Shown in pieces: positions 58,781 to 59,179 of a DNA stretch of 64,000 nt (positions are counted from its first letter, which is position 1; each line of letters begins with the position of its first letter). The position numbers and the translations under genes were made by a program. The notes under the pieces were generated by a model. The model was not told where the DNA came from. It saw only the letters and a list, made by a program, of their open reading frames with translations, and did not search any database. Location: the NCBI RefSeq assembly GCF_041886205.1, contig NZ_CP169030.1; one strand, given 5' to 3'. The stretch is from Escherichia coli (lineage in GTDB: Bacteria; Pseudomonadota; Gammaproteobacteria; Enterobacterales; Enterobacteriaceae).

Positions 58781-59179
58781 ACGGTTGGCGCATCAGTTTG
58801 GCATGGGAATTCTCCTCTTACATGCGGCCTCCATCAGGCCGTGCCGCACCTGTAACCGGGCGACCGCATACGAATGCAGGTGCTGCCTCGAAGCCGCAGC
58901 GCGTGGAGGAGGAACGACGAAACGTGACTGAGTGAGGATGCCGGCGACAGCGACACACTTGCATCGGATGCAGCCCGGTTAACGTGCCGGCACGGCCTGG
59001 GTAACCAGGTATTTTGTCCACATAACCGTGCGCAAAATGTTGTGGATAAGGCAATCCACAGCATGCATACAACCGCACACCGAGGTTACTCCGTTCTACA
59101 GGTTACGACGACATGTCAATACTTGCCCTTGACAGGCATTGATAGAATCGTAGTCTCACGCTGATAGTCTGATCGACAA

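Follow-up and report, generated by a model that had tools for sequence, protein, structure and literature searches.

On single-stranded DNA, a hairpin with a DnaA box is enough for DnaA to load DnaB and for priming to follow, as in the ABC primosome with its A site (PMC6127211, which cites Masai, Nomura & Arai 1990, Masai & Arai 1995 and Carr & Kaguni 2002 for the A site). The DARS core has a different layout, in which a consensus box II is 5 bp from an inverted box I and 3 bp from a direct box III; DARS1, as read from MG1655, is TTATCCACT-5-TGTGGATAA-3-TGTGTATTA. A 'double DnaA box', in which another box follows 2-3 bp off with its orientation unchanged, predicts binding in vivo (PMC11317965). 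RNA-polymerase-independent priming of the transferred strand in the recipient has been a question since the classical work on F. Complementary-strand synthesis of F is resistant to rifampicin; outside the leading region conversion keeps pace with entry by means of repeated priming, within the leading region it advances towards oriT from the oriT-distal side, and the host factors that start conversion are described as unexplored (10.64898/2026.01.09.698686). The Frpo/ssi elements and the ssp2 and ssp3 promoters have also been proposed to prime the complementary strand (Masai & Arai 1997; PMC9849209; PMC12672017).

Here we analyse an inverted pair of DnaA boxes in a 64,000-nucleotide stretch of an Escherichia coli IncF plasmid (hereafter the window). 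With modest confidence, we class the pair as a probable DnaA-box hairpin of the A-site kind whose setting is new. Like the A site, it offers a DnaA box able to sit in a hairpin stem, the strand in question being single-stranded in the cell. It would account for priming that is independent of RNA polymerase, and in Erwinia/Pantoea plasmids the predicted hairpin is stable with the full box in the stem. Unlike the A site, it is found in a conjugative leading region beside an ssDNA promoter and not near a vegetative origin, and in IncF, IncI1 and Klebsiella plasmids it has either a loop of 17-18 nt with a weak stem or a stem in which 7/9 box positions are paired. The pair shares its neighbourhood and strand logic with Frpo/ssi and the ssp2/ssp3 promoters, the hairpin beside the boxes (58835-58999) being a homologue of class 2. 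In contrast to those elements, however, it has no -35/-10 sequences, measures 36-46 nt as opposed to 150-300 nt, and would use DnaA, DnaB and primase instead of RNA polymerase. As in the DARS1 and DARS2 cores and the ColE1-type cluster, one box is inverted with respect to a consensus box and there is possibly a weak direct box 3 bp off, but the inverted boxes are 17-28 bp apart instead of 5 bp and the middle box is degenerate and not conserved. The DnaA boxes at the expected origin positions of the same plasmid (2991-2999 and 63638-63654) have the 9-mer consensus in common with the pair, which differs from them in not lying beside an initiator gene or iterons and in being common to IncI1 and Klebsiella plasmids with unrelated replicons. 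Our search of the accessible literature on DnaA boxes in leading regions or beside sopC found no description of such a site; F ssiA is placed by the literature upstream of ori2, not at the box pair.

An inverted pair of DnaA boxes between the leading region and sopC

The window is closest to the record of an IncFIA/IncFIB E. coli plasmid, with 99.8% identity over the region. Its Rfam matches comprise CopA (4.6 kb), two sok RNAs, FinP with the traJ 5' UTR (39.3 kb), and antisense RNAs to traI and traG. The - strand carries traJ and the tra operon (10-39 kb), the leading-region genes and, at the right end of the window after the 43-bp repeats of sopC, the genes sopB, sopA and repE. Given this - strand placement of the tra operon and the leading genes, we infer by the logic of F biology that the + strand is the one transferred, running 5'->3' from oriT (~40 kb) to sopC; the Frpo copies in the window are oriented to match + strand transfer. 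The leading region is transferred as ssDNA, and the + strand, as the presumptive transferred strand, would therefore be single-stranded as is the A site. Four Frpo-type (class 1) ssDNA promoter repeats are present on the - strand (42297-42823, 44800-45332, 50187-50719 and 53475-53974), whereas F is described with half as many (Frpo1, Frpo2).

At the oriT-distal border of this leading region the initial annotation had listed three DnaA-box-like motifs, two of which stand. Arm 1 (59041..59049, - strand) is a perfect box, TTATCCACA, which reads TGTGGATAA on the transferred + strand. Arm 2 (59014..59022, + strand) is its inverted partner, TTGTCCACA, with one mismatch to the consensus; the G at position 3 falls outside the stringent consensus TT[AT]TNCACA, to which arm 1 is a perfect match. 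The two arms are separated by an 18-nt spacer (59023..59040) and are complementary on the transferred strand except for one G·T, and their reading as DnaA boxes is reinforced by the conservation of the inverted pair across plasmid families described below. The third motif (arm 3; ATCCACAGCA, 59054..59063, + strand) is a poor box and does not survive as such: it contains ATCCACAG at 59054-61, has two mismatches to the DnaA consensus when read as a 9-mer (CAATCCACA, 59052-60), differs among close relatives and is missing in Klebsiella. Judged by these features, it is no credible DnaA box.

The occurrence of the pair in the window is beyond chance. Among 300 first-order-Markov simulations of the 64-kb window, a perfect box with a partner of at most one mismatch within 40 nt arose in 2/300, and with an inverted partner in 0/300; the core TCCACA-N8-38-TGTGGA is observed once in the window against an expectation of 0.13. 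The 64 kb contain only two perfect boxes, arm 1 and a second at 2991-2999 (- strand). The latter follows the RepFIIA repA ORF at a distance of ~180 bp, where oriR would be expected, and two adjacent one-mismatch boxes upstream of RepFIA repE (63638-63654, - strand) occupy the position expected for ori2.

The pair has the leading region on one side and sopC on the other, as had been claimed: DUF1281, the first leading-region gene, starts at 58804 (- strand; ATG 58804-58802, part 58793..58804), and the sopC repeats start at ~59150-59170. Alignment of IncF and IncI1 plasmids reveals homology from the start of DUF1281 to ~59085 with all three motifs inside, and the IncI1 plasmids are without sopC, their outer neighbour being the divergent impCAB operon. 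On the basis of this alignment, the box pair is part of the leading-region module and is not functionally tied to the centromere sopC.

About 4,400 plasmid records match the region, of which only ~1,660 reach the sopC side; the alignments of the remainder, mainly IncI1, are cut off by megablast near 59050 owing to a 12-bp deletion in the window. This deletion (TGCTGTGTCCTG; 59050/59051, relative to F and pO157) falls between the perfect box and the third motif, is common to only 4 PLSDB records at an identity of at least 99%, and cuts the predicted hairpin loop from 18 to 6 nt. The junction segment beyond the homology (59086..59170) is found only in sopC-bearing (IncFIA) plasmids and carries a degenerate sopC repeat from ~59145, a TGTCAA-N9-TTGACA palindrome, and TTGACA and TAGAAT hexamers.

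These hexamers had been taken for a promoter near 59120-59140, a proposal we reject. The distance from TTGACA (59129-59134) to TAGAAT (59143-59148) is 8 bp, not the 16-18 bp of a sigma-70 promoter, and a consensus promoter scan of 58200-59900 did no better than chance, with one weak site (TTGATA-18-GATAGT, 59139-59168) against 1.3 expected. A - strand TTGACA (59119-59114) has TAGAAC 15 bp beyond it, a combination in which the usual spacing and the T at -10 position 6 are both missing. The TTGACA that was read as a promoter has its source in the palindrome, at 59114-59134 in the sopC-side junction. A small protein gene over the boxes (- strand ORFs 59078-58818 and 59064-58834) was also rejected. 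Nearly all six frames are open here because of the regional G+C content, the predicted product is rich in Cys, Arg, Gly and Pro, and pPIMMR has a 28-bp duplication inside the ORF region; no - strand gene over the boxes is annotated in the records examined, pPIMMR having one small opposite-strand ORF there. A search for known RNA families returned only a sub-threshold match of miRNA type, to the hairpin.

Conservation of the pair across plasmid families

Read on the coding strand, the unit TTATCCACA-N17/18/28-TGTGGACA(A/G) recurs in IncF, IncI1, Klebsiella IncFII, Citrobacter and Erwinia/Pantoea plasmids, and the pair keeps the same orientation in families whose flanks and spacers are non-alignable. 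The perfect box is present in IncF, IncI1, Klebsiella and Citrobacter plasmids and in 2/4 of the Erwinia/Pantoea loci examined; L017 (arms TTGTCCACA/TGTGGACAA) and L010 (GTATCCACA) are without it. Arm 2 occurs in the variants TGTGGACAA, TGTGAATAA and TGTGGATAA. The IncF copies include those of F and pO157, and in IncI1 the right arm is TGTGAATAA or TGTGGACAA.

The comparison also covered a metagenomic set of 78 loci with an E. coli-type DUF1281, from a scan that gave close relatives only. The pair is carried by 64/78, with the left box intact in each, and the other 14/78 have a wholly different upstream module, none of them being a point mutant of the box. Among the 64 metagenomic copies each right-arm variant has at most one mismatch, and no double-mismatch haplotype was found.

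In Klebsiella IncFII (4 plasmids) the arms are invariant, while 5/17 positions of the 17-nt spacer are variable, as are the flanks. Here the pair is placed between stbAB plus a small gene on one side and an ssp3-type hairpin on the other, whether DUF1281 is present or not. Between the pair and a conserved 76-aa gene there is a terminator-like hairpin, GAACAGACG...CGTCTGTTC, with an A-run ahead (L009 2590-2615; L024 2490-2515). The Citrobacter pair was found on one contig. In Erwinia/Pantoea plasmids the spacer is 28 nt long and the pair is upstream of a klcA-type hairpin, 2.5 kb further in.

The pair is thus always just upstream of an ssDNA-promoter hairpin, whereas spacer, flanks and neighbouring genes vary. 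The hairpin partner is class-2-like and accompanied by DUF1281 in E. coli, of ssp3 type in Klebsiella and of klcA type in Erwinia/Pantoea, and the outer neighbour may be sopC, impC or stbAB. This distribution indicates that the pair travels with ssDNA-promoter hairpins and not with one gene. Its absence from the DUF1281-bearing leading regions L011, L014, L019, L021 and L023, from the 14 metagenomic loci and from R46, which has no inverted boxes, indicates that it is dispensable. In R388 inverted boxes were found only near repA, at the presumed origin, and a search of viral contigs for relatives of DUF1281 found none.

Related arrangements were seen elsewhere. In pOXA-48 (L108, NC_019154.1) inverted boxes with a 5-nt loop, TTATCCACC-gtttc-TGTGGATAA, are located at 13167-13189; they are A-site/DARS-like and, a long way from the replicon, occupy the gap that precedes a 19-kb block of oriT-directed genes. 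In the metagenomic plasmids L057, L062, L073, L081 and L095 a palindromic, centromere-like array of CTCATTTTGAG type replaces the DnaA-box segment, ~330 nt upstream of DUF1281 and abutting the base of the class-2-like hairpin. The L057-type TCTCA...TGAGA might be taken for a compensatory variant of the arms, but it is better read as part of this parC-like array of CTCATTTTGAG repeats and for that reason was not used as evidence.

Predicted folding of the pair and of the adjacent hairpin

On the transferred strand of the window the perfect box is predicted to fold mainly with arm 3: positions 59038-59047 (TGTTGTGGAT) pair with 59054-59063 (ΔG -6.2 kcal/mol, pair probabilities 0.5-0.99), which places 7/9 box positions in the stem, and the hairpin of arm 1 with arm 2 has a pair probability of about 0. 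In the IncF, IncI1, Klebsiella and Citrobacter families the arm 1/arm 2 hairpin is weak, with ΔG of -3.7 to -6 kcal/mol and z not significant; for the arm 1/arm 2 stem as such the range is -3.2 to -6. In 3/4 of the Erwinia/Pantoea loci the spacer is itself a G+C stem (TCCGGGG...CCCCGGA), of which L017 retains a shifted 4-bp stem only. The resulting compound hairpin (4 loci) has a predicted ΔG of -11 to -14 kcal/mol and, in the manner of the A site, takes the whole box into its stem; z is -4 to -5 in L016 and L010 and about -2 in L017.

The substitutions seen in the arms are, as far as comparison of these loci can say, stem-like in pattern. On the transferred strand, stem position 3 is A-T in L055, G·T in most copies and G-C in L017, and next to the box IncI1 and Citrobacter have a G-C pair where Klebsiella has A-T. 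A bias of the arm mismatches towards the transferred strand was considered and rejected, there being 4 wobbles on that strand vs 2 on its complement, which is not significant. The behaviour of the spacer fits a loop better than it fits a fixed protein-protein geometry, and its lengths of 17, 18 and 28 nt argue against a fixed geometry of proteins on double-stranded DNA.

The box pair is separated by 15 nt from the base of a long imperfect hairpin (58835..58999, transferred + strand) that precedes DUF1281 and is homologous to class-2 ssDNA promoters (ssp2 type). This hairpin aligns with those upstream of klcA/ardA in F and pESBL, having a shorter apex, and its stems are conserved with compensatory pairs. 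It therefore has the homology and the conserved long stem-loop upstream of a leading operon that mark class 2, with a ΔG of -65 to -69 per 300 nt that stops short of the -75 kcal/mol cut-off used in the screen of PMC12672017. The hairpin is outside the four ssDNA promoters reported for F; it may be a further one that has gone unreported, or else a barrier to DNA synthesis. An assignment to class 3 was rejected, since a ΔG scan of 300-nt segments puts ssp3 directly upstream of the methylase, at ~57880-58200 in the window and ~4460-4780 in pESBL L008. No other 300-nt segment of the distal leading region folds as strongly as the ssp3-type hairpin at ~57880-58200 (ΔG to -95 kcal/mol, transferred strand), which overlaps an ORF annotated as a hypothetical protein in many records.

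Candidate functions of the pair

We tentatively propose that the pair acts on the transferred strand as an A-site-like DnaA-box hairpin, which would load DnaB and primase for rifampicin-resistant synthesis of the complementary strand. During conjugation the + strand would enter the recipient 5'->3' as ssDNA and the arms would fold in vivo so as to bring the DnaA box into a duplex stem, formed in the window mainly by 59038-47/59054-63 and in the other families by arm 1 and arm 2. Host DnaA bound to this stem would bring in first DnaB-DnaC and next primase, in the manner of the ABC primosome and its A site; DnaB would move 5'->3' along the incoming strand, priming repeatedly, and the first primers would be extended backwards across the leading region in the direction of oriT. 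The proposal draws on the non-random occurrence of the pair, on its conserved orientation beside ssDNA-promoter hairpins, on the loop-like spacer and the stem-like substitutions, and on the precedent of the A site. A loader of DnaB sited at the leading-region border would agree with the data on conversion of F and, if the proposal is true, would account for the late, distal-first conversion of the leading region. The timing of that conversion sets the duration of anti-defence gene expression from the single-stranded promoters.

With rather less assurance, we suggest that the pair could be the missing cis signal for rifampicin-resistant conjugative synthesis, an A-site-type loader at the border in IncF, IncI1, Klebsiella IncFII and Erwinia/Pantoea plasmids and possibly in IncL (pOXA-48). 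On this reading, DNA beyond the border would be primed on entry, and the leading region would stay single-stranded, with its ssDNA promoters active, until synthesis runs back. A DnaA-box hairpin at the border would be a concrete, mutable cis element, and the pair occurs in the main families of resistance plasmids in E. coli, Salmonella and Klebsiella.

Several observations argue against the proposed loader. The arm 1/arm 2 hairpin is weak in four families and virtually unpaired in the window, where the stem with arm 3 leaves two of the nine box positions outside; the arm mismatches have no clear preference for the transferred strand; L017 and L010 are without a perfect consensus box; and the pair is dispensable, being absent from several DUF1281-bearing leading regions and from R46. 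IncI1 plasmids bring their own primase (Sog) into the recipient, and their retention of the pair despite this also counts against a loader.

The best-surviving alternative, which we consider somewhat unlikely, is a regulatory or insulating site for DnaA on the established, double-stranded plasmid, where bound DnaA blocks or modulates transcription that enters the leading region out of the adjoining maintenance genes, or represses the double-stranded leading operon. In favour of such a site there is a perfect consensus box, which in IncF and IncI1 has a weak direct box, TTTTGCGCA (6/9), 3 bp downstream, in an arrangement reminiscent of the double DnaA box. The 9-mer at this position has a comparable match in Citrobacter (TTTTCCTCC, 6/9) and a poorer one in Klebsiella (TTAA[AG]CCCC, 5/9), but it is not kept in Erwinia/Pantoea (TTCCGGGGC, 2/9). 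The Klebsiella pair comes just past the terminator-like hairpin at the end of the upstream gene, a placement suggestive of a boundary role; however, the upstream neighbours are divergent (impC) in some families and co-directional (sopB, stbB) in others, so there is no common transcript to block. The helical phasing of the inverted boxes is not constant either, given their spacing of 17, 18 or 28 bp.

Alternatively, the hairpin might be a structural element that is independent of DnaA and belongs to the fold at the edge of the ssDNA-promoter region, for instance as a barrier delaying synthesis into the leading region or as a site for some other protein that recognises TGTCCACA/TGTGGACA. The inverted repeat is indeed kept better than the exact consensus (L017 has TTGTCCACA/TGTGGACAA and L010 has GTATCCACA). 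Moreover, the neighbouring hairpin at 58835-58999 is homologous to ssp2, which stalls DNA synthesis in F, and the oriT-distal leading loci of F are converted later than their distance from oriT predicts (10.64898/2026.01.09.698686). We regard this explanation as unlikely: retention of the perfect 9-mer in IncF, IncI1, Klebsiella, Citrobacter and 2/4 Erwinia/Pantoea loci is difficult to account for if DnaA plays no part, and by themselves the hairpins in the E. coli and Klebsiella families are too weak to act as barriers.

It is quite improbable that the pair is a chance or relic sequence without present function, riding on a widely recombining leading-region module. Conservation within the IncF/IncI1 set is not specific to the boxes, because the whole intergenic region is 90-95% identical there; the finding of 0 variable sites in the 9 box positions is weakly significant (about 0.08, an estimate from the metagenomic background), and several lineages dispense with the pair. 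Chance is nevertheless excluded by the simulations for the pair in the window, and the arms persist in Klebsiella, Citrobacter and Erwinia/Pantoea even though spacer and flanks are unalignable.

Least probable is a DARS-like element, whose opposed boxes would promote ADP release and raise local ATP-DnaA for the DnaA-dependent replicons of the plasmid: the IncF/IncI1 order of consensus box, 3 bp, weak direct box, 6 bp (5 in Klebsiella) and inverted box mirrors the E. coli DARS1 core, TAATACACA-3-TTATCCACA-5-AGTGGATAA as read from the chromosome, but the essential middle box of DARS is a consensus box 5 bp from the inverted box, whereas the middle 9-mer of the pair matches at only 5-6/9 positions and is lost in Erwinia/Pantoea, and the two good boxes are 17-28 bp apart (18 bp in the window).

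The genes next to the pair are in a different state from the pair itself. A TGG->TGA change at codon 4 of DUF1281 (58795-58793) leaves only a 159-aa ORF from an internal ATG, and because of this stop the gene is, by its sequence, a pseudogene in the window plasmid. The M.EcoGIX-like methylase (57204-57886) is split into ORFs of 66 and 160 aa. On the strength of these two lesions the distal leading operon appears to be decaying in this plasmid, with the DnaA boxes and hairpins still intact. The pair is presumably also present on BAC vectors derived from mini-F.
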